Origin: Oscillospiraceae bacterium
Lineage (GTDB): Bacteria > Bacillota > Clostridia > Oscillospirales > Acutalibacteraceae
Assembly: GCA_031275995.1 (NCBI GenBank)
Contig: JAISNY010000016.1
Span: forward strand, 12,690 to 76,689
Direction: 5' to 3'
DNA length: 64,000 bases
Both the position numbers and the translations under genes were made by a program. The notes under the pieces were generated by a model. It saw only the letters and a program-made list of their open reading frames with translations. It searched no databases and had not been told where the DNA came from. Below are positions 2,670-37,304 of the stretch, piece after piece. Within the stretch, counting starts at the first letter, position 1. Each line of letters opens with the position of its first letter.

Positions 2670-4796
2670 ATGGATTTTAGAAAAACAACCAGAAAATTTT
2701 GGGCTCTCGTGTTTGCGGCAGGTTTTGCTGTGTGGAGCCCGGCGATCAGTGCAGGCGGAGTGCAGTGGCAGGGTCATGGTGAGGTTTTTAAAGTCAAAGG
2801 TGGAAGTGCCCCAGGGCAGCCCCAGAATCCTTTAAGATCTGGTAGGCTTGCTAGTGCCGCTAGTGCCGCTAGTAGTATTAATGATATTCTTGAGGAATAT
2901 GATGCGTGGATTCCCAAAGATGCATTAAAGGGCAAGAACTTTATAGTTAGTGATTTTACAACCGATGGTCTTAAGATTACTTTGGGTGGAGACCCAGGCT
3001 GGAGACTTTTGGCCGTTGATGGAGATGGCCAAAGAGGTTTAGTGGTTCATGTTGATGATTGGAATGAAACCGAGGATTTGTCACCAGACAGTTTAGATGA
3101 ATGGGCAAGTGATAAACTTGGATATTTAGGTGCTGCTAATCTTCTTTCTACGGTAGAAGTTGAGTTTGTTGCTCTTTATGATGCTGGTACTGGTACTGAT
3201 ACTAGTATTAGTACTAGTGTCGAGGAGTTCGGATCAAAATGTTTCCTTCCGACGGTTAGTGATGTTAATGAAGCTAATGGTAGTTTTACTCAGGCAAAAC
3301 TAGATCTTGGGTTTATCGATGCAAATGTGCCGGCTAAGAACATTGCAATTTATGGAGAGTATATTAACGGACCCTTGGGAGTTATAAAAGGAAATTTGTC
3401 TTCAATCCCTAACGGTTCAGTTGGTTGGCTCGTACCGCGTATGGTGGTTTTAAATTTTACAAATCTTGTGGGGTTGCGCGGAGATAACATGATTAGCAGT
3501 AACCATACTCCTGTGTTCGGCGATGGTTCAGCTCCAGGTTCTAAAGATAGTTTTCCTACAGGAACCGTTAAAGAAGACGTTCCTAACTATAGGTTTACGG
3601 TCGACGGTGTTGACAAGGATGACATCGGGAAAGAAAACTTGATAGTGAATGTTGGATTTGATACAAATATATCAGACTTTAGCCAATACTACGAATTTTC
3701 CTATGAGTTTAAAATTGACTCAGATAACTTTTCAATAGACTTTGAAAAAATTTTGGAGAAAGCTGCAAATGATTTAGCCATGATACCTGGTCAGAGTGCG
3801 ATGCCCTTTGACTTATTGACGTCAGAAGGTGTAAGGTTGAGTGCTTTCCTTGAAAAGGAGAAGAATACAATCCATCGCACAAATTCATCATCGGCTTTTG
3901 AAGTCGTTTTGAAAAAGTGTGTGAAGATAAGATTTTTAACGGAAGATCAGAGGAAAGTAGATAATCTTCCAAGATCTGGTCTTTATCAAGTGGGAGATGT
4001 GATCACTCAGGAGCCGACTCGTCCTCATTACCTTTTTGATGGGTGGATGCTTTGGGATGGCGATCTCGACGAAAGTGATCTCCTGGATAGCATAACTGTT
4101 GGAGATAGTGACGCGATTTACTTTGCGACCTGGACACCTAGTATTGCAGACGAAGAACAAAATGTTGAAGACGATGAAAGTGACTATGGAAGCGGTGAAA
4201 GTGACTATGGAAGCGATGAAAGTGATGAAAAATTTTTTGTAGGTTATTATGGAGAGTTGTACGATTATGAGACAGGAGTTGGGGTAAAGGGCTGGTTTAA
4301 TAGAGACCCTAAAACACTGGAGGTCACTGTCGTAACAGGAAACAAGGATGTCCTTGATGAAGTGGATAATCCAGAAAACATTGAAAAAATAAAGATCGTT
4401 GACATAAAAGTATTTGATGAATACGGGGAATCTTGTCAGCCTGTTGACAGCGTCACCGTGGATGTAAGGCTTGAAGGTAGCTGGGATGCAAGTGAGATTG
4501 AAGCGAGATATGTTTCATTGGGAACCGATGAAACGGTAAAATTAACGGGCACTTACAAAGACGCTAATGATGGTAATGTACATGCTGTATTTGAAGTTAC
4601 TCATCTGAGTCCATACGCTGTAATTGACAGAAGAGTGGGCAACGAAACGACGGATCCAGTATTCAAAAGCGTATTAGGATATAACCCGAAAACGGGCGAA
4701 AGTATTACAGTCGCCGTGCTTTGTCTAGCATCTTTGAGCTTGGCTTGCGCAATGTTTATTGTTGCAAAGAGAAGTAAAATAAGAGACGAAGAATAA
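2670..4796 (+). CDS. Cell-wall-anchored surface protein with an NPKTG sorting signal
   Basis: N-terminal signal peptide (FWALVFAAGFAVWSPAISAGG). The C-terminus is NPKTG, then a 23-aa hydrophobic stretch, then KRSKIRDEE, which is the classical sortase sorting-signal architecture. There is also an acidic ESDYGS repeat. Confidence 0.8.
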   Translation: MDFRKTTRKFWALVFAAGFAVWSPAISAGGVQWQGHGEVFKVKGGSAPGQPQNPLRSGRLASAASAASSINDILEEYDAWIPKDALKGKNFIVSDFTTDGLKITLGGDPGWRLLAVDGDGQRGLVVHVDDWNETEDLSPDSLDEWASDKLGYLGAANLLSTVEVEFVALYDAGTGTDTSISTSVEEFGSKCFLPTVSDVNEANGSFTQAKLDLGFIDANVPAKNIAIYGEYINGPLGVIKGNLSSIPNGSVGWLVPRMVVLNFTNLVGLRGDNMISSNHTPVFGDGSAPGSKDSFPTGTVKEDVPNYRFTVDGVDKDDIGKENLIVNVGFDTNISDFSQYYEFSYEFKIDSDNFSIDFEKILEKAANDLAMIPGQSAMPFDLLTSEGVRLSAFLEKEKNTIHRTNSSSAFEVVLKKCVKIRFLTEDQRKVDNLPRSGLYQVGDVITQEPTRPHYLFDGWMLWDGDLDESDLLDSITVGDSDAIYFATWTPSIADEEQNVEDDESDYGSGESDYGSDESDEKFFVGYYGELYDYETGVGVKGWFNRDPKTLEVTVVTGNKDVLDEVDNPENIEKIKIVDIKVFDEYGESCQPVDSVTVDVRLEGSWDASEIEARYVSLGTDETVKLTGTYKDANDGNVHAVFEVTHLSPYAVIDRRVGNETTDPVFKSVLGYNPKTGESITVAVLCLASLSLACAMFIVAKRSKIRDEE
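4173..4229. repeat. 21-nt in-frame tandem repeat (about 2.7 units) encoding (D/G)ESDYGS
   Basis: gatgaaagtgactatggaagc, then ggtgaaagtgactatggaagc, then a partial gatgaaagtgatgaa. Confidence 0.85.
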
Positions 4797-11117: not shown

Positions 11118-12839
11118 TTAAGTTTTAACAGGCCAGTTTAAACTTTTTGTATCTTTAAGATAACAAATCACAGATTCTTTAATAGAGTTTACCCGAGATT
11201 CTGACTCAAATTTTGTTTTACCATTTGCCAGTATATAAAATTTAATCAGAGGCTCAGTACCAGATGGCCTCACAATCAAACGGTTACCACCTGATAATTC
11301 AAAAGATAACACGTCGGAAATCGGTAAATCTATCTTATTTTTAATATTTTTAATCAAATCATGATGAGTTGAACTACGGTAATCACAAACCACTAAAACT
11401 TTTAAAGTTCCGAAACTGTATTTATCTTTGAGAATTTTCATCACTTTTTCAACTTTCGCAATTCTTTTTGAATCAACTACTTCACAGGATAAAGTCAATT
11501 CCGAATAAAAACCATAAGTTTCATATAAATTTTCCAGAATATCCATTAAATTTAGTCTTTTATGTTTAAAATACGCAGTCATTTCACAAGCAATACAGGC
11601 CGCATGAATTCCATCTTTATCGCGAATATAAGGTTCAAAAAGAAATCCTCCGCTTTCTTCAAAACCCATAAGGAAACATTTTGAAGCCTCTTTAAATTCC
11701 AGCTCCTGAAGCTGTTTCCCGACATATTTAAACCCAGGCAAAGTTTCTATTATTTTAATTTTATTTCGTTTTGCAACTTCATCTGCCAGACCACCACTAA
11801 CAATGCTTTTAATAAGTACATTTTTTTTTGTTCCACGCTCGATAAAATAGAAAAGAAACAAAGCCGCAAGTGTATTACCGCTAAGAACCTGATACGAACC
11901 ATTAAACGGAACCGCAACGCCCAAACGGTCGCCGTCAGGGTCGTTTAAGATGATGATATCCGAATTTTGGGTTTTAGCTAAAACGAACGCTTGTTCGAAT
12001 GCTTCTAACTTTTCCGGGTTTGGAACCTGACATGAAGTAAAATTTTCATCAGGAGCCTCCTGGAGTTTTACAATATTTAAATTTTTAAATCCAGTCCTTT
12101 TTAGAATCTCTTTTAAAATTTTCCCAGCGCAGCCGTTAAGCGGAGAATAAGTTAAATTTAATCCATGGGGCGCAAAACTAAATTGACTCAAATCGATTAT
12201 TTTTTTTATATAATTTTCTATTAAATTTTCATTAACAAATTTCGCAGCTCCTTGGGAAAAAGCATCCTTTAAACCTAATGTTTTCACATCGTTGAATACG
12301 TCTATTTTTTCGAAATATTCACATATTTTACCGACATCAACAATTTGAGATCCTAAATCATCATAAACTTTATAACCATTATATTGAGCCCCATTATGGC
12401 TGGCCGTTATCATAATTCCTGCTGAAGTTTTCAATTGTCGAACTGCAAACGAAAGAAGAGGAGTCGGCTGAAATTCTTTAAATATATAAACTTTTATCGC
12501 ATTTCCAGCAAAGACTTCCACTGCTTTAACAGCAAAAAGTTCGGAATTTTTTCGGGTATCATAAGAAATCACAACCGAAGGGTTTACAAATTTATCTAAT
12601 ATAAATTTTGAAATAGCCTGCGTAATTTGAGCGACAGTATACACATTAATTCGGTTAGGCCCAGCACCCATTAATGCACGCACTCCAGCAGTACCGAACT
12701 TTATAGAGTCTCCAAACCTGCTGAAAATTTCATTTTTATCGTCTTTGATGCTTAAAAGCTCTTCACTAACACTTCTATTATCAAAAGTTTTATCTAACCA
12801 CTTGTTATAAAGATCAATCAAATTCACGTTATTCAACAA
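11118..12839 (-). CDS. Alpha-D-phosphohexomutase (phosphoglucomutase/phosphomannomutase family)
   Basis: Active-site loop TASHNGAQYNGYK, metal loop DPDGDRLG and sugar loop GFEESGG. Confidence 0.85.
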   Translation of the reverse strand: MLNNVNLIDLYNKWLDKTFDNRSVSEELLSIKDDKNEIFSRFGDSIKFGTAGVRALMGAGPNRINVYTVAQITQAISKFILDKFVNPSVVISYDTRKNSELFAVKAVEVFAGNAIKVYIFKEFQPTPLLSFAVRQLKTSAGIMITASHNGAQYNGYKVYDDLGSQIVDVGKICEYFEKIDVFNDVKTLGLKDAFSQGAAKFVNENLIENYIKKIIDLSQFSFAPHGLNLTYSPLNGCAGKILKEILKRTGFKNLNIVKLQEAPDENFTSCQVPNPEKLEAFEQAFVLAKTQNSDIIILNDPDGDRLGVAVPFNGSYQVLSGNTLAALFLFYFIERGTKKNVLIKSIVSGGLADEVAKRNKIKIIETLPGFKYVGKQLQELEFKEASKCFLMGFEESGGFLFEPYIRDKDGIHAACIACEMTAYFKHKRLNLMDILENLYETYGFYSELTLSCEVVDSKRIAKVEKVMKILKDKYSFGTLKVLVVCDYRSSTHHDLIKNIKNKIDLPISDVLSFELSGGNRLIVRPSGTEPLIKFYILANGKTKFESESRVNSIKESVICYLKDTKSLNWPVKT

Positions 12840-12932
12840 CTTTAATCAAACTTTTTATAGCCAACTTGCAATGATTATCAAAGAAAACCAAGTCTGACGC
12901 TCTGCAAGGAACAACCTTTCCTAATGATAAGT

Positions 12933-13625
12933 TCAACCAAACTTTACAGAGTTAACTCTAATGCCCGGCCCCATAGTACTCGCTACAGTACAACTTTTAA
13001 CGTACTGCCCCTTGCTTGCTTCTGGTTTAGCCTTAACGATCACGTCCATCAAAGCTTCAAAGTTCTCACAAAGTTTTTCTGGACCGAACGAAGCCTTGCC
13101 GATAGAACAATGAATAATATTGTTCTTATCAAGTCTGTATTCGATTTTACCGGCTTTTGCTTCCCGAACGGCCTTACCGATTTCTGTCGTAACGGTACCA
13201 GCCTTTGGATTTGGCATTAAACTACGCGGTCCCAAAACCTTACCTAACCGCCCTACAGCCGGCATCATATCTGGAGTTGTTATTAAAACATCAAATCCAA
13301 ACCAATTTTCATTTTGAATTTTTTCTATATAATCTTCAGCCCCAACGTAATCAGCGCTGGCTTCAGAAGCGAACTTTTCATTTTCTCCCTTGCAGATTGC
13401 CAAAACCTTAACGGTTTTTCCTGTTCCGTTAGGTAAAACCACCGCGCCACGGACCTGCTGATCAGCATGACGGGAGTCTACACCCATTCTTATATGAATT
13501 TCAACAGTTTCATCAAATTTTGCTTTAGCAGTTTGAACACAAATTCCCAATGCCTCTATCGGCTCGAAAGACGAATTTTTTTCGTAAACTTTACAGATTT
13601 GAGCATACCTTTTTCCTCGTTTCAT
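12933..13625 (-). CDS. rplA: 50S ribosomal protein L1
   Basis: uL1 family sequence (MKRGKRY...). The start was moved to the ATG at 13625, which is preceded by GGAGG; the upstream extension in the track ORF has no SD. Confidence 0.93.
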
Positions 13626-13678
13626 GAACATTCCTCCAAAATAGTGGTAAAACCGGAACAAATCCTCCCACAGAACAC

Positions 13679-14110
13679 CTAAGCCTTTATAGTAACGCCC
13701 ATACTTCGAGCCGTGCCGGCGACCATACTAACAGCCGCATCAAGTGTGGCAGCGGTAAGATCAGGCAATTTTTGTTCGGCGATAGCCTTAAGCTGTCCCC
13801 GAGTAATCTCCGCCACCTTGGATTTGTTGGGCACGGCGGACCCCTTCTCAAGGCCACACGCTTTTTTGATCAAAACCGCGGCAGGAGGAGTTTTAGTCAC
13901 AAATTCAAACGAACGATCAGCATATATCGTTATAACAACTGGGATGATCGTGTCGATATCATTTTTTGTACGATCATTAAATTCTTTAGTGAAATTTACC
14001 ATATTCACTCCATGGGGACCAAGTGCCGAACCAAGAGAAGCCGGAGTCGCTTTCCCCCCGGGAATCTGCAATTTAACCTGCGTCACAATTTTTTTTGCCG
14101 ATGTCGCCAT
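13679..14110 (-). CDS. rplK: 50S ribosomal protein L11
   Basis: uL11 family sequence ([24 protein letters not shown]...), 143 aa, immediately upstream of rplA. Confidence 0.95.
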
Positions 14111-14366
14111 TTAACCGCCTCCAAACGTTTTCTGTTCATTGAATACCACTAGCCTCTTCATCAATCATTAAGATATTGATTGAATTTGGCTGTGATCATC
14201 CTTAACTTAAAACTACTGTTATTATTGATTATAAACAAAACGCCGACCGAACGCAAACCAAAACAAATCTTTATTAAACAAGAAAACTTTCCGCCAAACA
14301 CAAAAAAACACTCTCAAAAATGATCATAAACTTATTTTGATAACCTTATTCAAATATTAATCTAAA

Positions 14367-14906
14367 TTACTTTATAGGTGAAACATCATCTAAACGCAAT
14401 TCAACAGGAATTTTTTTACCAAACATAGGAACATTAACTTTTACAACTCCACCATCCAAATCAATTTCAGAAACATCGCCTTCGGAACCTTGGAGTGGCC
14501 CAACCAAAATCTCTACCAGATCCCCTTCTCCGTAACTAATCTCAAGCCCGCTGTTTACACCAACTCCAAACGTCTCAACGTCCTTCTCATCCATGGGGAG
14601 CGGCTTGGATGAAGAAGTTCCTACAAAACCAACCAAACCTCGAATGCTTCTTAACATATGATAAAAATCATCAGTTAAAACTAATTTTACAAAAATGTAT
14701 CCTTGGTAAAGTTTTCGTTCAACCGTACGCCTTTTGCCTTCTTTTACTTCAGTGAAGGTCTCGGTAGGGATTTTCACACCATGGAACAAATCCGCCAAGC
14801 TATTATTTTCAACAACCTTTAAAATGTTAGCAGCCACATTATTTTCATACCCAGAATATGTTTGAACCACATACCATTTGGCTTCCTCCAGCTTAAGCAC
14901 CCCCAT
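14367..14906 (-). CDS. nusG: Transcription termination/antitermination factor NusG
   Basis: NGN start KWYVVQTYSGYEN, a C-terminal KOW domain, and the conserved secE-nusG-rplK order. Confidence 0.93.
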   Translation of the reverse strand: MGVLKLEEAKWYVVQTYSGYENNVAANILKVVENNSLADLFHGVKIPTETFTEVKEGKRRTVERKLYQGYIFVKLVLTDDFYHMLRSIRGLVGFVGTSSSKPLPMDEKDVETFGVGVNSGLEISYGEGDLVEILVGPLQGSEGDVSEIDLDGGVVKVNVPMFGKKIPVELRLDDVSPIK

Positions 14907-14930
14907 ACAACCTAACTTTATTATGTTTAA

Positions 14931-15164
14931 TCATCGTGAAACATTCATAACGGCGCTTAATGCATGAATCAAGCCCAAATCCACCAAAAAAACAAATATA
15001 CCGACAACAAAAATCATCGCGAGCGTGATGCCCGTATTCTTAAATGTCTCTCGAGGGGTCGGCCATACAACCCTTTTAAATTCCCTAAAAAATTCTTTGA
15101 CCTTTAAAACAGTTGCTAATTCTTTCTTTTTTTCTCCACCGCTATTGTTACCCTCAACAGCCAT
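14931..15164 (-). CDS. secE: Preprotein translocase subunit SecE
   Basis: 77 aa with a single C-terminal TM segment and the motif FFREFKRVVWPTPRET. It sits between rpmG and nusG. Confidence 0.88.
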   Translation of the reverse strand: MAVEGNNSGGEKKKELATVLKVKEFFREFKRVVWPTPRETFKNTGITLAMIFVVGIFVFLVDLGLIHALSAVMNVSR

Positions 15165-15196
15165 GCTTCCACCTCCATAAAACGACCAAAAACAAG

Positions 15197-15346
15197 CTAT
15201 TTTGTCTCTTTATGCTCGGTATGCTTCCTGCAAAACCGACAATGCTTACGTAAGACTAAGCGATCAGGGTCGTTTTTTTTGTTTTTTACTGTGTCAAAAT
15301 TTCGGTGCTTGCACTCTTCACACGCAAGTGTGATTTTAATCCTCAT
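15197..15346 (-). CDS. rpmG: 50S ribosomal protein L33 (Cys4 zinc form)
   Basis: [17 protein letters not shown]...[13 protein letters not shown] chose the ATG at 15346, which is preceded by GGGGGAGAGGG. Confidence 0.9.
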
Positions 15347-15598
15347 GTTAGCCCTCTCCCCCTTATGTCTTCCGAGCACACAACCACACATTGGAGTATA
15401 ACATAACCGTTGATTAAAGTCAAATGCAAAATAGCAGCAAGGATTTACCACAGATATGCTTGAGTAATTAAGCTCAGATGCAATCTAAAAATACAAAATC
15501 CAAGATGAAACATTTTACCACGCCGTAAATTTAAGGCCCGGATAACCTTGATTTCTAAAAGATGAGAGCAAAGGTTCCTTTAAAGCAAGCATTAAAAT

Positions 15599-16009
15599 TC
15601 AGCTGCAATAATCTTCCAATATCTTACTTAACTCTTCTTCATTTCTGGCTGAAATTCCATATTCCAAAAACTTTCTGTCAGCTTCAGGTAGATCTTTCAC
15701 GTAAACGGAAAGAACTTCTCCTGGTTCGGTTGAGCCTTCTCCGAAAACTGCAACCTTTCCATTGTAGGATTTTACCACAAACCCTTGAAGCACTTCCTGT
15801 GAAACCATGAGTTCAGATTCCTGTTGAGGTTCTTTCAACCATTGAGGTTCTTCTTTTGTTTGAATTAATTCAGAGGGATAAGCTAACGTTTTTGAATTTT
15901 TGTAAAATTTCCACACGAACATACAACAAAATAAAAAACAAAAAACAAAAAGACTCAATAAGGTTACTTTGGATCTTTTCACTAGCACCACCACTTTTAA
16001 TTTGCTCAA
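15599..16009 (-). CDS. Membrane-anchored protein with a BofC-C-terminal-like domain (tentative)
   Basis: N-terminal TM segment (LLSLFVFCFLFCCMFVW). The C-terminal pattern NGKVAVFGEG...PGEVLSVYVKDLPEADRKFLEYGISARNEEELSKILEDY recalls the BofC C-terminal domain. The start is uncertain: it is TTG with no SD. Confidence 0.35.
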   Translation of the reverse strand: MSKLKVVVLVKRSKVTLLSLFVFCFLFCCMFVWKFYKNSKTLAYPSELIQTKEEPQWLKEPQQESELMVSQEVLQGFVVKSYNGKVAVFGEGSTEPGEVLSVYVKDLPEADRKFLEYGISARNEEELSKILEDYCS

Positions 16010-16060
16010 AATAATTAATTTTATCCATTAACATGTTTTCAATCATAAATTTTTGAATTT

Positions 16061-16089
16061 TTGACAAAATTTTATATTATATCCATAAT
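16061..16089 (+). promoter_or_regulatory. Sigma70-like promoter of the orphan two-gene module
   Basis: TTGACA (16061-16066), a 17-nt spacer and CATAAT (16084-16089), about 45 nt upstream of the first ORF. Confidence 0.5.
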
Positions 16090-16135
16090 TTAATTAACAA
16101 AAAGTTTCATAATTTATTGATTTTAATCAAAGGAG

Positions 16136-16777
16136 ATGAATGTAATCATGGGACTTGCGTCTAGATTTTGTAAATTTTTTAATGTAGGGGAGTTTTTTAC
16201 CGTGGAGGTTCACACTCAAACGATGAATTTTGGTCATCGCACAAAACATCAAGTTTTAACGATGAAATTTAATAAAAAAAATAAAAATGGTGGAGATGTG
16301 GATGTGAGACATGTCTTGAAAATGTGTTTAAGAAAGAAACCAACAGCAATGAAAAATGCAGGGATTTATTCAGCGGACGATTGCGTAATACGTAAAGAAG
16401 CTGTGACGGGTGGTGTCTTGGAACATGTCCTCAGATTGAATCAGCTTGTTATAGCCGGAAATAAAGTTCCGATTAAGTTATATTTTTCACGGAAGGATGT
16501 CGAAATCAAAGTTTTTTCGAACGATTTAAGACATAAAACAATAAGCGTTAACGTTCCTATAATTGCAACTAAAACAGAAATCATTTACTGCGTTCATAGA
16601 GATTTTAAAGATTTTGGTGACGGTTCAGGATGGTTGTTTTTAGATACTGGGCAAGAAAACATAAGATTTCATGAAAATCAAGCAATACGGTATTTATTCG
16701 AAAATCTGAGGCCTGACACCCCCTTAAAAACAATAAACAAGGTAATTGTAAAAAAAGAACTAGCTATGAGGGGATGA
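16136..16777 (+). CDS. Hypothetical protein A (213 aa); no recognisable family
   Basis: Long ORF on the coding strand with AAAGGAG upstream (start at ATG 16136 or 16148). It has no signal peptide, TM segment or catalytic motif that I can identify. Confidence 0.6.
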   Translation: MNVIMGLASRFCKFFNVGEFFTVEVHTQTMNFGHRTKHQVLTMKFNKKNKNGGDVDVRHVLKMCLRKKPTAMKNAGIYSADDCVIRKEAVTGGVLEHVLRLNQLVIAGNKVPIKLYFSRKDVEIKVFSNDLRHKTISVNVPIIATKTEIIYCVHRDFKDFGDGSGWLFLDTGQENIRFHENQAIRYLFENLRPDTPLKTINKVIVKKELAMRG

Positions 16778-17013
16778 AACAACGAGGAATGTGGAACTCG
16801 GTAAAACTTTAGGTCCCAGTTTAATCTTAATGTAGTAGAAGTTTTTTGATTTTTCAGTTGCTTACGAAATTATTTAGTATTTTGTTGCAAAGATACTAGG
16901 GCGAAAAAAGTGCTATTTTAAATATGACAAATTCTAAGTTGCATGTTTCGGTAAGTGAAATCCAGTGCATGGATTAAGGTTACATTTCAAGACAAGGGAG
17001 GGGGAACAAAATT

Positions 17014-18888
17014 ATGGGTAATCCGAAAGATAAAAAAAAGGGGTCGCTTCTTCAAATTTCAAGGAAGTTTTTAAAAAAAGTAAAAAGAACATTGGGGATT
17101 ACTACTGCCCTTGAATTCATAGTAGAACATTTTGAAACCAGGAAAAAAGTTATTACTTTTTTTCATTCAAGTGATAATATGGGAAAAGTTTCATCTAAGG
17201 CCACGCGGGAACTCAGAATCCGTTCTGATGCCAATACTGAATTCGGCCTTTTTTACAAAATAGGAGGAAATTTTTCTCGGATAAGAGATAATACTCGTGC
17301 ATTCACAGTATTCAAAGTCTTACAGAAGTCGCCAAAAAATCAAAGGAAGATTTTTTTAGGTCGAATTTGTAAAATTTGTATTTTAGACTATAAAAACGAA
17401 GTCATCTGGGGTACCGAATTGTTTCCTCCTCCTACTAATCGAAAATGTGTTATTGAGCAAGTCCAAAAAGAATTATCTGGGAATTGTGAATATGAATTCG
17501 AACTCTTTGCAAAGGTGAGCGATAATTGGAAAGCAATTAAAGATTCTGATATTAAGCATTCTTCCACCATTGGGGTCAGGGCAGTTGAAGTTGTTAGTAT
17601 TCAAATTGGAGAATTTGATTTTAAAGCCCGCGAAGATCTAAAAATCGTTGATGTTATAAAAGGACATATTCCGGTTGGTGTAGAGGTTTGCAGCAGTTTA
17701 GATTGTACTCCGTTTCAAGAAATTCCCCAATTAAGTGCAGTGTCTAAAGTTAAAAATGCTTTTAAGGTAGGAGAATTATCTAGATACTCAAAGAAATGGG
17801 TTACTTGTGTTAGGGTAAATAAAAGTTTTGTAGAAATAGATAAAAGAACTACTTACAGAGGAATTTTAGAGAAATTCGCTACACACGAAACCATAGATGA
17901 AAAAAGGCTCTTTAAATTACCGCCAGATATAAATCCTGATGCTGTGGTTTGGGGTTCGAAAATTCCTGAAGGAGGAATTAATCTTGTAGCACCTACAAGA
18001 ATTAATTTGAAGGCACCACATAATTCACTTAGTTTTTTTCTTTCTTTGCCTTGCAGTCAGGACGAGGCGGTTAATGCAATTAAAGAACAAACTAGACAAA
18101 TCAACGAAAATTGTTGTATCTTTTTTCAAGATAAGCTAGCAGCAGATGAACTTGCTTCTATTGGAAAGCCTCCGGAAAGTGGAACTTTAGATTTGGGTTG
18201 CCGTTGGATGTTTTTTTACGAAAAGGAAGGCGGTGGTTCTGGCCGGGTAGAAGTTCCTGAAGCAAAAACTAATTTTTATCAACTTCAAGAGGCCATTTCA
18301 AAAAATGAAGGAAAAAGAATGGAACTTAGTTTTCCAATCCACGTTGCAGGTAGTCCTGTTATTAGCATCCAAGTAAGTAGCACAAACAAAAGTGGCAAGA
18401 TGGTTGCATCACCGGCTAAAGATGTATTCGACTTAGTTATGGTAACCATTTATAATTTTGGTACATGCGGAAAAATAGTTCAATTTAATAAAGGGAAGTC
18501 TAACGAGATACGAAAAGATATAACTGTAAAAGAACTTAGACAAAGGGTTGCTGTTGAGCTTGGGATACCTTGCTGGTTTCAAATGGGAAGTACCACAAGA
18601 GATGGAGAAGTAATTTATGAGGATTCTAAAAAACTTTCCGAATTGACCAGAAATGAAAAAGAACTTAGTTTTTCATGTAATGCGTCTGTATTTTGTAGAT
18701 ATCCAGATGGGAAAAAAGTACTTGTGCAAATGCGTGAACCCCAACAAAGTTCAAAATTAGGAGATATTATTAAGACTCCAGGAATGGCTTTGGAGGGCGC
18801 AAACGAATTAGCGTCAAATTACGAAGGAGACGACCCGGATCTAGTTTTTCAACTATCAAGCCTTAAGCCTAAAAACCTGATTCGATAA
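17014..18888 (+). CDS. Hypothetical protein B (624 aa); no recognisable family; possible repeated beta-grasp/ubiquitin-like modules
   Basis: Strong SD (AAGGGAGGGGG) 8 nt before the ATG. The 624-aa ORF has a basic N-terminus and no signal peptide or TM segment. The Ubl-like sequence pattern is inference only. Confidence 0.7.
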   Translation: MGNPKDKKKGSLLQISRKFLKKVKRTLGITTALEFIVEHFETRKKVITFFHSSDNMGKVSSKATRELRIRSDANTEFGLFYKIGGNFSRIRDNTRAFTVFKVLQKSPKNQRKIFLGRICKICILDYKNEVIWGTELFPPPTNRKCVIEQVQKELSGNCEYEFELFAKVSDNWKAIKDSDIKHSSTIGVRAVEVVSIQIGEFDFKAREDLKIVDVIKGHIPVGVEVCSSLDCTPFQEIPQLSAVSKVKNAFKVGELSRYSKKWVTCVRVNKSFVEIDKRTTYRGILEKFATHETIDEKRLFKLPPDINPDAVVWGSKIPEGGINLVAPTRINLKAPHNSLSFFLSLPCSQDEAVNAIKEQTRQINENCCIFFQDKLAADELASIGKPPESGTLDLGCRWMFFYEKEGGGSGRVEVPEAKTNFYQLQEAISKNEGKRMELSFPIHVAGSPVISIQVSSTNKSGKMVASPAKDVFDLVMVTIYNFGTCGKIVQFNKGKSNEIRKDITVKELRQRVAVELGIPCWFQMGSTTRDGEVIYEDSKKLSELTRNEKELSFSCNASVFCRYPDGKKVLVQMREPQQSSKLGDIIKTPGMALEGANELASNYEGDDPDLVFQLSSLKPKNLIR

Positions 18889-20014
18889 TTTCTTCGGTTA
18901 ACTTTTCGGCATTTTTATTGGCTTCTATAACTGATTCTAAGGAATAAATTGGTTTGAAAGCAACTGATTCAAACACTTTTTTGACTACTCTCGGAATATC
19001 CGAAAATCCAATCCGGCCGCTTAAAAATGATTTAACGGCAACTTCATTGGCTGCGTTAAGAGTACATATGGCTTGTTCCCCCATCCGCAATGCTTTTCTG
19101 AACATCTCAAAAATTTGTTCATAGTCCTCTTTAGGCTTTATAAAGGTAAGGATTCCTTTTTTAGTCAAATCCATAGATTTTGAATTGTTTTTTACACGCA
19201 AAGGAAAAGAAAGAGCGCAATGGATTGCAATTTTCATATCAGGTTCTGACATCTGTGCAATCAGAGAGCCATTTACGAATTCAACCATGGAATGTATTAT
19301 GCTTTCGCGGTGTATTACAACTTCTATGGAATAGGGGTCGACACCAAAAAGGTATGCAGCTTCCGCGATTTCAAGACCTTTGTTGATTAATGTAGCGCAA
19401 TCTACGCTGATTTTCGGGCCCATTTGCCAATTCGGATGATTTATTTTTTCGGGAGTAACTTTCTTTAATTCTTCTTTAGAATATCCGAAAAACGGGCCGC
19501 CGGAGCATGTCAAAATCAACTTCTTAACCTCTCCGGAAGTTTTAAGGGTCCCGCCCAAACATTGCCAGATAGCGTTGTGCTCGCTATCGAGAGGAAAAAT
19601 CTGAGCACCGTTTTCCTGAACACATCTCATAAGAATATTTCCGCCTGAGACGATTGATTCCTTATTAGCAATAGCTATTTTTTTACCGCAGCGTGCTGCC
19701 GCAAAAGTAGGCTCTAAACCAGCAAAACCTGAAACAGCATTAACCACAACTTCACAATCTGAAAGAGTCGCTACTTTGCAAAGTCCTTCCTTCCCACTCA
19801 TAAACGATGCTTTATAATTTTTTGAAAGTTCCTGAGCGTCACGGGAATTTTTTACACAAACAAACGCCGGAAAAAATTCTTCTATTTGTTTTTTTAATAA
19901 TTCTATATTTTTCCCTGCTGATATTCCTTCCACTTTGAAGCCCAATTCTTTTGCTACTTCAAGCGCCCGAACTCCTACTGAACCTGTTGAACCTAAAATA
20001 ATTATCTTTTTCAT
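18869..20014 (-). CDS. dxr: 1-deoxy-D-xylulose-5-phosphate reductoisomerase
   Basis: N-terminal NADPH motif ILGSTGSVG, LANKES-like motif IANKESIV, and the conserved core NHPNWQMGPKISVDCATLINKG. Confidence 0.93.
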   Translation of the reverse strand: MKKIIILGSTGSVGVRALEVAKELGFKVEGISAGKNIELLKKQIEEFFPAFVCVKNSRDAQELSKNYKASFMSGKEGLCKVATLSDCEVVVNAVSGFAGLEPTFAAARCGKKIAIANKESIVSGGNILMRCVQENGAQIFPLDSEHNAIWQCLGGTLKTSGEVKKLILTCSGGPFFGYSKEELKKVTPEKINHPNWQMGPKISVDCATLINKGLEIAEAAYLFGVDPYSIEVVIHRESIIHSMVEFVNGSLIAQMSEPDMKIAIHCALSFPLRVKNNSKSMDLTKKGILTFIKPKEDYEQIFEMFRKALRMGEQAICTLNAANEVAVKSFLSGRIGFSDIPRVVKKVFESVAFKPIYSLESVIEANKNAEKLTEEIIESGF

Positions 20015-20104
20015 ATTTCGGATTATATCAGAAATTAATTTAAATTTCTAGCAACATCGATATTGGTTATTGCTAAAAAAGGTAAATTTTTTCACAAACA
20101 TTAA

Positions 20105-20358
20105 AACAGAATTAGAAATCATAACTTAATTGATCTTAATAAACATATTGCCGGGGAAGCTCATACGCATACTGTTGAAAAAATAAATCGTCTTTTGCGC
20201 CGTTATTTGGCAAGATTTGCGAGAAAAACATACTGTTGGCCGAAAAGTTTGGCAATGAGAGAAAACTCTGTTTTGCTGTTTATGAATAAATGTATATTGA
20301 TTTATCAATGCCTTTTAAGATTGGCTATTGTAAACGTATTAAGTTTAATGTAGCCTAT
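20105..20358 (+). mobile_element. IS1-family transposase C-terminal remnant (no start codon, no DDE core)
   Basis: The plus-frame translation ...GEAHTHTVEKINRLLRRYLARFARKTYCWPKSLAMRENSVLLFMN... aligns by eye with the E. coli IS1 InsB tail [41 protein letters not shown]. Only about 80 codons are open, bounded by a stop at 20102. Confidence 0.55.
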
Positions 20359-20388
20359 GCCTGAATTTATGGAATTAAGGGGGAAACT

Positions 20389-22458
20389 TTGGTTAAAAAT
20401 TTAGTTATTGTGGAATCTCCAGCAAAAGCTAAAACTATAAAGAAATATTTAGGCAATGGTTTTAACGTTATTGCCTCTATGGGCCATGTACGAGATTTGC
20501 CGGCTAAAAGGCTTTGCGTGGACATCAAAGATAATTTTAAGCCGAAGTATGCTATAATCAAAGGTAAAGAAGAAATAGTTCGTGAGATAAAGTCAGAATC
20601 GGCAAAATCAAACAAAGTCTTTCTTGCTGCCGACCCAGATCGTGAAGGCGAAGCGATATCTTGGCATCTTGCGCATATCTTGGGGCTTGATCCGGAAGAA
20701 AAAAATAGAATCACTTTTAACGAGATTACCAAAACCGGAATCAAAAATGGGATTTCATCTCCGAGAACCTTGAACTCTGATTTAATAAACGCGCAGCAGG
20801 CACGGCGTATACTCGACAGGCTTGTTGGATATAAACTTAGCCCGTTTTTATGCCAAAAGCTTCAAAAAGGACTTTCTGCGGGCCGGGTTCAGTCGGTTGC
20901 TTTAAGGATTATTGTTGACCGTGAAAATCAAATCCGTGCTTTCATCCCTCAGGAATATTGGACAATTATTGCCAGTCTTACTGTTAGTGGCGGTGGAAAT
21001 AAAGTTTTTCAGGCTCAATTTTATGGAAAAGAAAAAGAAATAAAACTTAAAACTCAAGCTCAAGTTGAAAAAATTTTGGAGGATCTTGAGGGTGCTCAAT
21101 ATGTTGTGAATAGCGTAAAGAAAGGTAAGCGTAATAAAAATCCGGCGCCTCCGTTTATAACCTCAACAATGCAGCAGGAAGCTTCGCGCAAGCTTAATTT
21201 TTCAGCTAAGAAGACAATGAAGACGGCGCAAGAACTTTACGAGGGAGTTGAGGTGGAAGGCATCGGTGCCGTCGGGTTAATAACTTATATGAGAACTGAT
21301 TCTTTACGTATTTCTCAGGAAGCCGCCAAGGAAACATCCGATTTTATTGAAAAAAAATGGGGCAAAGATTATTTGCCGTCTGTTCCGAGGCGCTTTAAGG
21401 TAAAGGCCGGTTCTCAAGATGCTCACGAAGCCATAAGGCCTACTATGCCTTCTTTCGACCCCGAAAGGGTTAAAATTAGTCTCACTTCAGATCAGTTTAA
21501 ACTTTACAAATTAATTTGGGCCAGGTTCGTTGCCAGCCAGATGGCGGTTTGCGTGCAGAACACAGTAAAAGTGGAACTTTCTGCTGCGGGTTACATTTTT
21601 AGAGCCTCAGGATGCTCGGTTTTATTCGATGGATTTACCGTTCTTTATACCGAAAGCAAAGATGAAAAAGAATCAGACGAAAAAATGTTGCCTCCGCTTA
21701 AAGAAGGAGACGTATGCAAGCTTAAAAAAATTGAAAATGCTCAGCATTTTACTGAACCGCCGCCGCGTTATACGGAGGCATCCTTAATAAAGGCTCTTGA
21801 GGAGCATAGAATAGGGAGGCCTTCTACTTACGCGGTAACTATTTCCACTATTCTTTACCGAGAATATGTAGTTAAAGAAGGTAAAATTTTTAGGCCTACT
21901 GAACTTGGAGAGGCCGTTAACGGGATTATGGTAAGTTACTTCCCCAAAATAGTGGATATTGGTTTTACTGCCAGCATGGAAGAAGAACTTGATTCGATAG
22001 AAAGTGGAAATATGCTATGGACCGAGACTCTTGGAAATTTTTATAGCGGATTTGAAAAAACACTTGAGGACGCAAAAGAAAAGACTAAGGATTTGAAAAT
22101 TCATCTAAAAGAAAATGAAACTGATATAATTTGTGAAAAATGTGGTAGGCCTATGGTCGTTAAGCACGGTAGGTTCGGTAAGTTTATTGGTTGCTCGGGA
22201 TTTCCGGAGTGCGAAAACATAAAGAAATTCGTAAAAAAGGTTGGAGTTAAGTGCCCGAAATGTGGGGCTGAAGTGGTAAAAAAAGCTTCAAAAAAAGGTC
22301 GAGCGTTTTATGGTTGCGAACGGTTTCCGGAATGTGATTATGCTGCTTGGAACCAGCCGACAAATGAGATATGTCCAAGTTGCGGTAGGATGCTCTATAA
22401 GAACACCAAAAAGATTTTTTGTGCTGAGCCCGATTGTAAGTATTCAAGGAACCTTTAA
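20389..22458 (+). CDS. topA: DNA topoisomerase I
   Basis: TOPRIM start LVIVESPAKAKTIKKYLG, the region TYMRTDS containing the active-site Tyr, and three C-terminal CxxC...CxxC zinc ribbons. TTG start after AAGGGGGA. Confidence 0.93.
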   Translation: MVKNLVIVESPAKAKTIKKYLGNGFNVIASMGHVRDLPAKRLCVDIKDNFKPKYAIIKGKEEIVREIKSESAKSNKVFLAADPDREGEAISWHLAHILGLDPEEKNRITFNEITKTGIKNGISSPRTLNSDLINAQQARRILDRLVGYKLSPFLCQKLQKGLSAGRVQSVALRIIVDRENQIRAFIPQEYWTIIASLTVSGGGNKVFQAQFYGKEKEIKLKTQAQVEKILEDLEGAQYVVNSVKKGKRNKNPAPPFITSTMQQEASRKLNFSAKKTMKTAQELYEGVEVEGIGAVGLITYMRTDSLRISQEAAKETSDFIEKKWGKDYLPSVPRRFKVKAGSQDAHEAIRPTMPSFDPERVKISLTSDQFKLYKLIWARFVASQMAVCVQNTVKVELSAAGYIFRASGCSVLFDGFTVLYTESKDEKESDEKMLPPLKEGDVCKLKKIENAQHFTEPPPRYTEASLIKALEEHRIGRPSTYAVTISTILYREYVVKEGKIFRPTELGEAVNGIMVSYFPKIVDIGFTASMEEELDSIESGNMLWTETLGNFYSGFEKTLEDAKEKTKDLKIHLKENETDIICEKCGRPMVVKHGRFGKFIGCSGFPECENIKKFVKKVGVKCPKCGAEVVKKASKKGRAFYGCERFPECDYAAWNQPTNEICPSCGRMLYKNTKKIFCAEPDCKYSRNL

Positions 22459-23300: not shown

Positions 23301-23377
23301 GCGCCGATAGCTCAGCAGGATAGAGCAACTGCCTTCTAAGCAGTAGGTCGGGGGTTCGAATCCCTCTCGGTGCGCCA
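23301..23377 (+). tRNA. tRNA-Arg (anticodon UCU), CCA encoded
   Basis: The cloverleaf can be read directly: acceptor GCGCCGA/TCGGTGC, D arm GCTC-AGCAGGATA-GAGC, anticodon arm ACTGC-CTTCTAA-GCAGT, T arm GGGGG-TTCGAAT-CCCTC, and discriminator G followed by CCA. Confidence 0.9.
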
Positions 23378-23439: not shown

Positions 23440-23844
23440 ATGAATATAGCACTTCTTGCTCATGAGCGTAGACGCGAGTTAATGGTTAGGTTTTGTATTG
23501 GTTATCGTAATGTTTTGAGTCAGCACAGTCTATTAGTTATGCCGAATTGTATTGAGGCGATTCGTGGCGCTGTTAAATTAGCGGTAGTTCCTTGTTCGGG
23601 TAATTCGTTAGATGGGTTTCGTCAGATTATATCAAAGATTTCTTGCCATGAGGTTGATTTGTTATTGTTTTTTCGCTATGCTTCACCTTATGTTACGATT
23701 ACTCCTGACGAGATCGAGCTTTTAAGAATTTGTGATTTTAACAGTGTTCCATACGCCACTAACATCGCCACGGCAGAAGTTTTGATTAAAGGTCTTGAAC
23801 GAGGAGATTTTGATTGGCGGAATGCTGGCGACCCGATGATATAG
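23440..23844 (+). CDS. Methylglyoxal synthase-like (MGS-fold) protein with a degenerate active site
   Basis: It aligns by eye with MgsA (IALLAHE..., DLLLFF, VPYATNIATAEVLI). It lacks the TGTTG loop, the GGDQQ motif and the PHDPD histidine. Confidence 0.6.
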   Translation: MNIALLAHERRRELMVRFCIGYRNVLSQHSLLVMPNCIEAIRGAVKLAVVPCSGNSLDGFRQIISKISCHEVDLLLFFRYASPYVTITPDEIELLRICDFNSVPYATNIATAEVLIKGLERGDFDWRNAGDPMI

Positions 23845-28149: not shown

Positions 28150-29712
28150 TTACATGCGAGTCAACCCATTGGCAAAATCCTTTACGACTTTGCCGGCGAC
28201 TGAAGATAAAAAAATGAGTTGTTTATCTTTACGGAAAACGATTATATTTATTAGTGTGGGAAGAGTCAAGCATATCAAAAAATTTATTGAAATTTGTAAA
28301 ATCAAAGACGGAGCTACTATAAAACCAGTCAATTTGTATGTGGCAATTGTGTAAAAAATTGTTAGGGTTGTATACAAAATATATTTCTTGTAATATTCGA
28401 TTAACTTTTTATTAAACACAATTTTATATATAAAATAAGGTTGTGAAATGAAAGGAACCAAGATTGTACTTAAAATTCCTCCAATTATGGCTCCGATTAT
28501 TCCGAATTTTTTAGCTAATATGAACGAAACAATAAAATTTAGAGTAGTTTCCAGAATAGGAATGAATCTATCTTGCAAAAAAATTCCGGCGCTCGATTTT
28601 ACCATATCTACAGATTGTTTCATTCCGTAAAGATAAAGGTTAACCGTAATCGCTACAGTTAAGGCCGGAGAGAAAATTGAGTTTTCGGTCCCAATCCAAA
28701 TTTTCATAAAAGGTGAAACTGTGTTTAAAAATATTGCTGAAAAGGATGAATATATTAAGAAATTTAAGAAGAATATAACTTTAAAATTTTCATAAACTTT
28801 TTCTTCAGATTCTGTTGTAAGCAAATTACCGAAGCTTGCGCTTATACCGTTAAAAATTTCACTTGTGATTCCTAAAACTGCACCCGTAATTAGGAGGTAG
28901 TTATAAAAAATTCCATTTTCTCTTAATGTAGCAAAAATTAGAACTATAACTCCTGAAATTTGTTTTATGCTTGCGCCTCCAATTCTGTGAAAGAGCATGG
29001 CCTTTATGTTTTTTAAAATTTCTTTTCTTTCGTTGGGTTCTAATTTTTTTGAATTTGTTAAATCGATCAGAGGATAATGTTTTTTAAAAAAATAAGAGAT
29101 TAAAATATTTTCTAAAATTCTGAATGTTATTTTCGTTATAATATAAAGTTCAAACGATTTTAAAAATATTAATACGAAAATTTGCGATGAAACAGTTAAT
29201 ATAATGATGGGAATTTTAATTAAATTATTTATGTAGCTTTTTTGGTCAGCGATGAACATTGTACGTTTATGAAAAAAAAGATAGGAAGATATGACATCCA
29301 ACGTATAGAGCAGGAAAATTATTCTTAATTTAAGGTTTGTTAAACCACTGTCTTCACCTATGAGTTTTACTAAAAATAGAGAAAAAATTATCGCGGAAAT
29401 CAAAATTATTGATGAAATTACTACGTAGGTTTTCTTTAAAAAATTTAAGAAGTTGGAAATTTTCAACCAATCTTTCTTGAAAATTGGTTCATATAACTTA
29501 TAACTCATTCCAATTCCGAGCCCCAGCTCAACAACGGCTAAAATGGAAACTATGTTTGAAAATCCGCCGTCGATACCAACCAGCGCAAGTCCAAGCACAC
29601 GAGAGAACATTTGCCTTACTACAAAAGTGGCAACCATAAACACTAAGTAACACAGGCAGTTTACCAGAATATTAACTATGCTTTTTTTTGTTCTCATCAA
29701 CGTTCTCATCAA
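28150..29712 (-). CDS. Polysaccharide/oligosaccharide flippase (Wzx/MOP-superfamily-like)
   Basis: 520 aa, about 12-14 TM segments, very AT-rich, adjacent to the glycosyltransferase. Confidence 0.65.
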   Translation of the reverse strand: MMRTLMRTKKSIVNILVNCLCYLVFMVATFVVRQMFSRVLGLALVGIDGGFSNIVSILAVVELGLGIGMSYKLYEPIFKKDWLKISNFLNFLKKTYVVISSIILISAIIFSLFLVKLIGEDSGLTNLKLRIIFLLYTLDVISSYLFFHKRTMFIADQKSYINNLIKIPIIILTVSSQIFVLIFLKSFELYIITKITFRILENILISYFFKKHYPLIDLTNSKKLEPNERKEILKNIKAMLFHRIGGASIKQISGVIVLIFATLRENGIFYNYLLITGAVLGITSEIFNGISASFGNLLTTESEEKVYENFKVIFFLNFLIYSSFSAIFLNTVSPFMKIWIGTENSIFSPALTVAITVNLYLYGMKQSVDMVKSSAGIFLQDRFIPILETTLNFIVSFILAKKFGIIGAIIGGILSTILVPFISQPYFIYKIVFNKKLIEYYKKYILYTTLTIFYTIATYKLTGFIVAPSLILQISINFLICLTLPTLINIIVFRKDKQLIFLSSVAGKVVKDFANGLTRM

Positions 29713-35579: not shown

Positions 35580-37079
35580 TCAAAAATGCTTGCTTTTTTT
35601 GGTCGCAACCTTACTTAACGTATTTGCCGCAGATATGGATAACGCAATGGATATAATTGCCACGCAAATAAAGTTTAATCCTGTTTGAGGGTTATTAGTC
35701 GGTGTTTTACCTCCGGACCCAGAACCACCGCTTCCACCGTTTCCACTGCCTCCACCGGAGCCCTTTTGACACAAGTTATATGCGGTTACTGAACCATCGT
35801 TGCTGTCTTTAGATTCTACCCAAGCGCGAAAATCTGTTTCATTACTTAAATTAATGTTACCTTGCCTGCCGCTTATGTCGCACGTATATTCATAATACTT
35901 TTCGCCGGAACGTTGGGAGCATATCACGAGCGTCGCATTTTTTTCAAAATCTCTAGCATCATAAAAAAGAGTGTCTTCTTGATTTGTAAGTATCGCTTTG
36001 GTTGTCGAATCATTCTTTAATCTGAAGTGACTTACGTATCTTCCCTCTTCGTCTGGAATGATTTCTGAAAATTTGCCGTGTGTTTCCTTCCCTGAGGCTG
36101 CGCTGGCAAAAAATACATTTTCCAATGAAATGTTAAGGGCGGGAACTGCGAAAAGTTTATCTTGAGGGATTTTGAGTACATTTGTAATCTGACCGTCTCT
36201 ATCTGCGTAAAATATCCCTCTTTTTTCCATGTCGTCCATCGCCATGGATCTTGTTATCCAGCAGCAATTTACGGCGTTCGGATCCCAAAGTAATGACAGG
36301 TCTGTAGGCTTTATTTGCCTTGAGACAACTGCCCGCGGAGGATCCAGCGAATCGAATCCGTATAAAGTTTGATTTAACTCGCTTGTGCTTCCTCCGATAT
36401 TAAATCCAGAGGTGCTGTTGGGGTTACCCGAAAGTGAGAAAGAAAATGCTACTTCTTCCTTTGTTTCGTAATTTCCCCACGTGTATGTTCCGTCTTTGTA
36501 ATGCGCTATGGGCAGATCTACCTTAGATGGCAACACATTTGGTGAATAATGTTGCTTGATCGTTTTGCTCAACTCACTTGATAATATTTGAGCTGTAATT
36601 CCCCCTGAATCATTGCTCGGAAGTAACGCTTTTTCAGAAAGCAAAAACAATTTACCGTCGTAGCAATTTAAAATGCGGAAAACAATCTCTTCTTTTCCAA
36701 AATAGTGATCGACACTGTTGTAATTTAACCTTAATGTTGAACCATCAGATGAAACAAAAGGGTATACATGCTGTCGGTAGGCTGAGTCGCATGGTGTATA
36801 ATTCAGCTTTTTTGCTTCAGATAATTTCCCGTTTGTCAGCTCTTTTTGCCAAAAGCTTAAAAAAGCTATATATTGTCCCGAGCCGTTTCCTTGAATAATG
36901 TCTCCTCCAAGTTTATTAGCGTGGTCAAGTGTTGTTTCGAATTCGTTCGGCATAGAAAAAATGCTCCGAGAGAATTTAACGTTTTCTACGGCAAAAACCA
37001 TCGGACTTAAAATCGATGCAATCGAAAAGATGAAAGCAAAGATTGGAAGTAGGATTTCTGTTTTAGTTTTTTTATACAT
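35580..37079 (-). CDS. Cell-wall-anchored surface protein with an NPQTG sorting signal
   Basis: Signal peptide MYKKTKTEILLPIFAFIFSIASILSPMVFA, a Gly/Ser linker, then NPQTG, a hydrophobic stretch and KKSKHF. The start is either ATG 37079 or the upstream TTG at 37094. Confidence 0.75.
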   Translation of the reverse strand: MYKKTKTEILLPIFAFIFSIASILSPMVFAVENVKFSRSIFSMPNEFETTLDHANKLGGDIIQGNGSGQYIAFLSFWQKELTNGKLSEAKKLNYTPCDSAYRQHVYPFVSSDGSTLRLNYNSVDHYFGKEEIVFRILNCYDGKLFLLSEKALLPSNDSGGITAQILSSELSKTIKQHYSPNVLPSKVDLPIAHYKDGTYTWGNYETKEEVAFSFSLSGNPNSTSGFNIGGSTSELNQTLYGFDSLDPPRAVVSRQIKPTDLSLLWDPNAVNCCWITRSMAMDDMEKRGIFYADRDGQITNVLKIPQDKLFAVPALNISLENVFFASAASGKETHGKFSEIIPDEEGRYVSHFRLKNDSTTKAILTNQEDTLFYDARDFEKNATLVICSQRSGEKYYEYTCDISGRQGNINLSNETDFRAWVESKDSNDGSVTAYNLCQKGSGGGSGNGGSGGSGSGGKTPTNNPQTGLNFICVAIISIALSISAANTLSKVATKKSKHF

Positions 37080-37304
37080 TTTAACCACATCCAAAATTAT
37101 TTTGTTATTGTAAATCTACAATTTTTAAGTGTCAACAGTCAAATTCAAGATTCTGCCTTAAATTTTGGAGACGGTTTTGGGAGTATTTTTGGATGCGTTT
37201 TTAAATTCGCCTTCAAATTGTGGTAAGAGTCATGGTAAAAAATTTTTATTTGGTGTATTAGTTACTTTAATAGCGAATATTTCTAATTTTATGGTGCTGC
37301 TTTT

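Follow-up and report, generated by a model that had tools for sequence, protein, structure and literature searches.

A two-gene orphan pair beside dxr in a sparsely sampled Oscillospiraceae lineage

We analysed a 64,000-nt stretch of the genome of an uncultured Oscillospiraceae bacterium (the window, in whose coordinates all positions are given) and, within it, a two-gene region at 16061-18888 that comprises open reading frame (ORF) A and ORF B. Both ORFs are genuine protein-coding genes, and both are taxonomically restricted (orphan) genes, combining bona fide coding signals with the lack of any detectable homologue outside their lineage. We consider it probable that the two are long-resident genes restricted to an Oscillospiraceae lineage that has been sampled very sparsely. 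The elements of the locus are the following:

16061-16089, plus strand: candidate sigma70-like promoter upstream of A, TTGACA-17-CATAAT, matching at 11 of 12 positions, its function suggested by position alone
16130-16135, plus strand: Shine-Dalgarno (SD) sequence of A, AAGGAG, as read from the DNA, abutting the ATG at 16136, with a further in-frame ATG (16148) 12 nt on
16136-16777, plus strand: ORF A, 213 aa, basic (isoelectric point, pI, 9.8), soluble, of no known family
16778-17013, plus strand: non-coding spacer of 236 nt between A and B, with negative coding scores in all six frames
16996-17004, plus strand: SD sequence of B, GGGAGGGGG, likewise as read, 9-12 nt ahead of the ATG
17014-18888, plus strand: ORF B, 624 aa, basic (pI 9.2), soluble, with 15 Cys, of no known family
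18869-18888, no strand assigned: 20 nt shared by B and dxr where their 3' ends converge, from the ORF coordinates
18869-20014, minus strand: dxr (DXP reductoisomerase; Pfam DXP_reductoisom, DXP_redisom_C and DXPR_C), a conserved neighbour that served as lineage marker

At the local stop-codon frequency of 0.081, an open frame as long as B (624 codons) has a chance probability of 1e-23 and one as long as A (213 codons) of 1.4e-8. Under a codon model trained on 32 Pfam-supported genes of the window (0.286 +/- 0.058 bits/codon, minimum 0.152), B scores 0.242 bits/codon in frame, with identical values in its two halves, and A scores 0.176; both lie inside the range of the training genes, and all five alternative frames of each gene score negatively. 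The codon-position composition of the two genes (GC1 > GC2 > GC3, with a purine-rich first position) is like that of their neighbours. An independent Logan assembly (run SRR14710916) carries the identical A/B locus, and B is annotated at NCBI as MDR2074100.1, 'MAG: hypothetical protein LBP36_01885 [Oscillospiraceae bacterium]', MAG standing for metagenome-assembled genome.

The layout given in the preliminary description, which placed a pair of 213 and 624 aa between the nusG/rplKA cluster and dxr, agrees with the ORF coordinates: the pair is flanked by a minus-strand rpmG-secE-nusG-rplK-rplA cluster on one side and by minus-strand dxr on the other. The strong SD sequence that it reported before B was found as listed, the length it gave for the spacer is correct, and both parts of its statement on the 3' end of B hold, since the 20-nt convergent overlap is present and no terminator-like site lies between B and dxr at 18869-18888. 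The sigma70-like site is likewise present and is the top-scoring one across the 5 kb from 15400 to 20400, yet sites of such quality are not statistically unusual in this AT-rich window (5 observed vs 2.8 +/- 1.8 in shuffles). The spacer yielded no Rfam match and no excess RNA structure (z = 0.08), and its plus strand contains no promoter-like or terminator-like site. The start of A is ambiguous, being set at 16136 by JGI (213 aa), at 16148 by Prodigal/Logan (209 aa) and at 16223 by PGAP (184 aa); 16148 is the more plausible, because AAGGAG directly abuts the ATG at 16136.

Neither protein could be assigned to a family. Searches of whole A and B against Pfam, NCBIfam, PADLOC and PHROGs returned no family, Pfam showed nothing above noise when B was cut into ten 120-aa tiles, and sequence searches of Pfam, NCBIfam and the PDB were empty at E <= 1-10. 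The library matches that did appear were at noise level (Beta-prop_HVO_0234, E 0.05; LON_substr_bdg, E 0.18; phrog_17544, E 0.14). Both proteins lack a Walker A motif, an HExxH motif, a signal peptide and any hydrophobic stretch of transmembrane (TM) grade (maximum KD19 hydropathy 1.19 for A and 1.33 for B), Pfam and NCBIfam revealed no helix-turn-helix (HTH) or other family in either, and B has a single CxxC. Motif, hydrophobicity and family scans thus concur with the absence of P-loop, metal-binding motif, signal peptide, TM segment and HTH noted when the locus was first described, and its statement that neither gene bears a family signature held in every library and collection searched. The two genes were searched to different depths: an exhaustive phmmer search was run for B, whereas A was covered by a word-indexed search and by tblastn of smaller collections. 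B retrieved itself alone, both from 5.8 billion clusters in the word-indexed search and from 1.84 billion representatives in the exhaustive one, and A retrieved solely its own three start-codon variants in the word-indexed search. Contig scans and tblastn found no homologue of either gene in metagenome contigs, IMG/VR contigs, GenBank phages or PLSDB plasmids. A tblastn similarity between residues 514-596 of B and ORFs in the BamA region of loci from three gammaproteobacterial sites (E 0.06-0.15 against a very small database) was judged to be due to chance. Single-sequence AlphaFold2 models had a mean predicted local distance difference test (pLDDT) score of 30.8 for B and 39.2 for A, with no residue above 70; they are unusable because there are no homologues from which to build an alignment, and fold matches to models of such low pLDDT would be meaningless.

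The distance to the nearest sequenced relative probably accounts for much of this isolation. Among 185,579 GTDB species representatives, the best match to the Dxr protein of the window has 49% identity and comes from MAG Gx481_bin36 (GCA_031265995.1), derived from the neighbouring run SRR14710922; no metagenome contig in the collection matches Dxr at more than 44% identity. The organism of the window is itself in neither collection. Scans of GTDB genomes and metagenomes anchored on dxr recovered no shared gene order and nothing above 49% identity. In GCA_031265995.1 the gene order around dxr is not kept, and no A-like or B-like ORF occurs in the ~40 kb inspected; as synteny is lost across the whole neighbourhood, the absence of the pair next to dxr in that genome is uninformative. 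Detection would fail at this distance for any protein whose evolution is a few times faster than that of Dxr, and the pair probably looks unique mainly because fast-evolving proteins are unrecognizable across it. The apparent uniqueness of A and B is most likely mainly the product of sparse sampling and rapid divergence in a lineage that has been sequenced once.

Species-specific orphans of the gut microbiome offer a published point of comparison: most of them match the GC content of the host genome, show purifying selection and are not phage-derived (Vakirlis and Kupczok 2024, PMC11293555). Like these, A and B have no outside homologue, a host-like composition and no phage similarity, with a GC content slightly lower and a pI higher than those of conserved genes, and the agreement in native-like composition is consistent with a native origin. 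Unlike them, B at 624 aa is much longer than typical, and the lineage has been sampled once. As long-resident orphan genes, A and B would probably share a transcript that starts at the promoter-like site (16061-16089), and each would be translated from its own SD sequence, yielding soluble, basic and presumably cytoplasmic proteins. Given that catalytic and nucleotide-binding motifs are lacking, their most likely role is non-enzymatic, such as protein binding or scaffolding. B has the appearance of a multi-domain alpha/beta protein, whose C-terminal part may hold an integral ubiquitin-like (Ubl) beta-grasp module; if real, this module would be a built-in docking domain rather than a conjugatable tag. 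We found no evidence that A and B form a multi-component system, and adjacency and a probable shared transcript are the sole ties between them.

Several observations weigh against lineage-restricted orphan genes as the explanation. The two genes are known from a single allele with no homologue, and from DNA alone. The orphan status of A rests on the word-indexed search and on tblastn of smaller collections. Published orphans tend to be short, and 624 aa is long for the class. The dinucleotide deviation of the region, at the 93rd percentile, leaves room for an old acquisition. Counted as one family out of thousands, the Ubl signal of B falls under every conventional threshold (PDB E = 0.59, no Pfam match and half of the fold), and the tests of it re-measure the similarity that prompted the Ubl idea in the earlier description, so that they are not independent confirmation.

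The Ubl signal itself comes from the C-terminal part of B, where two overlapping features were delimited:

18001-18885, plus strand: C-terminal half of B (residues 330-624), four consecutive stretches of ~70-85 aa, each weakly similar to a Ubl profile
18430-18678, plus strand: candidate, unproven Ubl (beta-grasp) module, B residues 473-555, from ISG15 matches in the PDB, a Ubl hidden Markov model and hhalign

ISG15 is a tandem Ubl. When residues 481-624 of B were searched with phmmer against the whole PDB, the top three matches were ISG15 Ubl domains, at non-significant E-values of 0.59-1.5, and B 499-536 (IRKDITVKELRQRVAVELGIPCWFQMGSTTRDGEVIYE) aligned with ISG15 19-56 in the beta2-alpha1-GxP-beta3 register. 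A home-made Ubl profile was also built from 16 sequences (ubiquitin, NEDD8, ISG15 N and C, SUMO1 and 2, parkin, HR23A, ubiquilin, FAT10 N and C, elongin B, Rub1, Dsk2, Hub1 and USP14), and against it B gave P = 7e-5 and ranked first among 1999 long ORFs drawn from the window and from 165 other loci; of the shuffled sequences, 1 of 5000 global and none of 5000 local ones scored as high. As ~25,000 families could have been matched, this P value corresponds to an E-value near 1 and is not significant. Taken by stretch, with boundaries that were drawn after the Ubl matches had been seen, P was 8e-3 for residues 330-396, 2.6e-3 for 397-472, 4.4e-5 for 473-555 and 1.3e-3 for 556-624, and the four N-terminal stretches gave 0.07-0.15. 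With hhalign, the probability of a match to Ubl was 58% for the B segment (32 columns) and 12% for whole B.

Other tests did not extend this signal. Pfam models of the ubiquitin clan matched neither whole B nor its 120-aa tiles, and in every B module only the first half of the fold (beta1-beta2-alpha1) aligns to Ubl profiles. PDB phmmer searches with whole A, whole B and four B segments returned, apart from ISG15, only noise (acylphosphatase, myosin and FCHo2). B has no internal repeats, self-BLAST returning the identity match alone; the best similarity between modules, assessed by Smith-Waterman alignment with shuffles, had P 0.02 over 45 pairs, and MAFFT, used without guidance, gave an incoherent alignment when applied to the four C-terminal modules. 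A shows no similarity to B and no signal against the Ubl profile (P = 0.033). The proposal of multiple Ubl-like modules across the two proteins is therefore supported weakly and in part: the segment of B on which it drew (ITVKELRQRVAVELGIP...) does give ISG15 as its top PDB matches, weakly, whereas the lack of repeats in B, the noise from its other segments and the lack of signal in A speak against a plural reading. Set beside integral UBL domains and tandem Ubls, ISG15 among them, B ranks first on the Ubl profile and aligns over one segment with ISG15; unlike them, it has no C-terminal Gly-Gly, and the similarity is non-significant, covers half of the fold and is not confirmed by the models, at pLDDT 31. 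On this basis, at least one Ubl-like beta-grasp module at B ~473-555 is a serious possibility that we hold with somewhat less than even confidence, a tandem Ubl array in B is unlikely, and the module is a lead rather than a finding.

The nearest relative contributes a separate observation. GCA_031265995.1 encodes a eukaryote-type USP/UCH deubiquitinase (PF00443) on contig JAISBW010000020.1 (L002:17403-19090, minus strand, which is L165:10001-11688, plus strand), with matches of 34.9 and 46.2 bits vs a cutoff of 23.9. The protein has an N-terminal signal/TM segment and is membrane-anchored or secreted, and no close homologue of it was found among 5.8e9 clusters. The NCBI and Logan assemblies both split its gene into ORFs of 461 and 112 aa, and dnaG of the same genome (L165:14831-16575, plus strand) is likewise called as two overlapping ORFs, of 137 aa (the zinc-ribbon part) and 469 aa; together, the two split genes suggest frameshift errors or ongoing pseudogenization in the genome of the relative. 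A search of the window's own genome for a deubiquitinase (DUB) with this UCH protein returned the query itself alone.

These data bear on the possibility that B is a poly-ubiquitin-like protein of 4-8 tandem beta-grasp modules that acts, perhaps jointly with A, as a mimic or decoy for the ubiquitin machinery of a eukaryotic host. Such a role would fit a gut-protist-associated or otherwise host-associated Oscillospiraceae lineage, and it can draw on the weak similarity of all four C-terminal stretches of B to the Ubl profile, on the first rank of B among the ORFs compared, on ISG15 as the top PDB match and on the above-threshold deubiquitinase of the relative. A small-genome clade of the same family, in which endosymbionts of protists from termite guts are grouped with related MAGs from the gut, has UCH, Peptidase_C19 and RING genes of eukaryote-like type that are thought to manipulate protist hosts (Takahashi et al. 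2023, PMC10579323), and these effectors, together with the UCH protein of the relative, keep a host-interaction role of B alive. That clade, of 'Acutalibacteraceae', is assigned to the same family, Oscillospiraceae, by NCBI naming, has a similarly low GC content and shares the UCH type with the window's nearest relative. However, A and B differ from the published effectors in lacking any recognizable eukaryotic domain, signal peptide or TM segment, and B has no other export signal; no eukaryotic homologue of B was found among the 1.84e9 representatives. The modules of B have no detectable similarity to each other, each aligns over the beta1-beta2-alpha1 half alone, and neither the N-terminal half of B nor A gives a signal. 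The window also retains pyrimidine, methylerythritol phosphate (MEP) pathway and diaminopimelate (DAP) biosynthesis genes (pyrB, pyrC, pyrD, pyrF, dxr and dapF) of the kind that the published 'energy parasites', with their reduced genomes, have lost. We regard the mimic as quite unlikely. A more specific formulation, in which B would be a new kind of bacterial poly-Ubl, with a basic N-terminal region ahead of at least four highly diverged beta-grasp modules in tandem and no conjugation machinery, serving with A as a decoy or adaptor for the host ubiquitin/ISG15 pathway, is speculative and has, in our judgement, a small chance of being right.

An alternative to long residence is that A and B are the cargo of an old horizontally acquired element, such as a prophage remnant, a defence island or an integrative element, from an unsampled donor. 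The region was described earlier as more AT-rich than its flanks, which is so to a modest extent: the GC content is 0.346 for A and 0.358 for B vs 0.399 +/- 0.037 for 40 other genes, that is, ~1.1-1.4 standard deviations under the gene mean, with 3-4 of these genes lower still. Compared with windows of the same size, the region lies at the 93rd percentile for dinucleotide signature and at the 79th for tetranucleotide distance, which is high but not an outlier, and the compositional extremes of the window are a surface-protein gene and a polysaccharide-type cluster. Along with this slight bias, an acquired origin would explain why the pair sits between unrelated housekeeping operons on the strand opposite both neighbours, and why GCA_031265995.1 has no A or B next to dxr, although the loss of synteny across that whole neighbourhood voids the last point. 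Against it, no integrase, tRNA target or meaningful flanking direct or inverted repeat was found around the genes, the repeats present being AT-rich and at chance level and the nearest tRNA lying at 23301. No PADLOC or PHROG family was matched, no counterpart occurs in IMG/VR contigs, GenBank phages or PLSDB plasmids, and codon usage falls inside the host range. The composition of A and B is native-like, and in the absence of hallmarks a mobile-element origin was rejected, with only a little probability left to it.

We also considered whether A and B could be proteins specific to the lineage that act in sporulation or in cell-envelope morphogenesis, such as components of the spore coat. Spore-coat-type proteins are typically fast-evolving orphans in Clostridia, and the divergent upstream neighbour of A provides a hint in this direction:

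15599-16009, minus strand: small membrane-anchored protein with an N-terminal hydrophobic segment and a sub-threshold Pfam BofC_C match

The BofC_C match covers the C-terminal 55 residues of this product (E = 0.0054, 17.2 bits vs a cutoff of 21) and is the sole sporulation-related hint within the 64 kb. The basic character of A and B and the 15 Cys of B would suit coat proteins, and the -10 region CATAATTTA would also fit the SigK-type consensus, CATA---TA. On the other hand, the window contains no bona fide sporulation gene, the BofC match is under the Pfam cutoff, promoter resemblances are cheap in AT-rich DNA and neither protein matches a coat-protein family, so that a sporulation role appears very unlikely.

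That A and B are spurious or decaying ORFs without function, as the lack of homologues might suggest, is barely plausible and was rejected on the coding statistics, given the open-frame probabilities, the host-like and frame-specific codon usage in both halves of B and the proper SD sequences. Scarcely credible, too, is a bacterial Ubl conjugation module of the Bil/Bub type with B or A as the conjugated Ubl. The weak Ubl signal of B and the C-terminal glycine of A (...KKELAMRG), as found in conjugatable Ubls, would favour it; however, the glycine is probably a coincidence, since A gives no Ubl signal, B ends in ...SLKPKNLIR with no glycine for adenylation, and neither protein has a PADLOC match. 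As the first description of the locus had stated, there is no E1, E2 or DUB partner nearby: by Pfam content, none of the sizeable genes of the 64-kb window, each of which has either a Pfam assignment or a verified lack of one, encodes an E1 (ThiF), E2 (UQ_con), JAB or UCH/USP protein, and the Bil/Bub-type system was rejected for want of partner genes. Known bacterial multi-beta-grasp Ubls belong to E1/E2/DUB operons and are conjugated via their C-terminus (2024, PMC11601603). Their architecture, with beta-grasp domains behind diverse N-terminal regions, is compatible with a possible B, which differs in having no E1/E2/DUB neighbours, no PADLOC match and no suitable C-terminus.

A and B had been presented as the only sizeable genes of the window without a family signature. 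This was not borne out, as five further genes lack Pfam families:

2670-4796, plus strand: 708-aa protein with an N-terminal signal-like segment and a sortase-type C-terminus
23440-23844: 134-aa gene product
28150-29712, minus strand: 520-aa polytopic membrane protein, 30% GC, between a glycosyltransferase and an ABC transporter
35580-37094, minus strand: 504-aa protein with an N-terminal signal-like segment and a sortase-type C-terminus
45816-46889, minus strand: 357-aa protein with the Walker A motif GSPGCGKS and sub-threshold P-loop Pfam matches only (NPHP3_N and AAA_5)

The pair is therefore not uniquely dark within the same 64 kb. At the C-terminus of the 708-aa and 504-aa proteins, an NPKTG or NPQTG motif precedes a hydrophobic stretch and a basic tail, as in surface proteins anchored by sortase, and the gene for the 708-aa protein has the most deviant dinucleotide signature of the window. 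The largest tetranucleotide deviation belongs to 28150-29712, which looks like a variable surface-polysaccharide (flippase/polymerase-type) locus. The gene at 45816-46889 lies a short way upstream of the S10 ribosomal protein operon, from which it diverges. On the minus strand at 11118-15451, rpmG-secE-nusG-rplK-rplA is followed by phosphoglucomutase and gltX genes rather than by the usual rplJ-rplL-rpoB-rpoC. No ribosomal leader RNA scored above Rfam thresholds anywhere in the window, and its only RNA gene is tRNA-Arg(TCT) at 23301-23377.

If the Ubl signal of B proved real, a stand-alone multi-beta-grasp protein without an E1/E2/DUB context would join the growing list of bacterial Ubls, and it would hint at interference with host ubiquitin in gut Oscillospiraceae beyond the published endosymbiont clade. 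If A and B are instead ordinary lineage-restricted orphan genes, the locus exemplifies 'dark' protein space as a sampling effect: a well-formed, host-adapted gene of 624 aa can escape 1.84 billion comparison sequences because its lineage has been sequenced once. Given that sequence methods are exhausted here, the pair is a target for structure-first annotation, whether by language models or by experiment.

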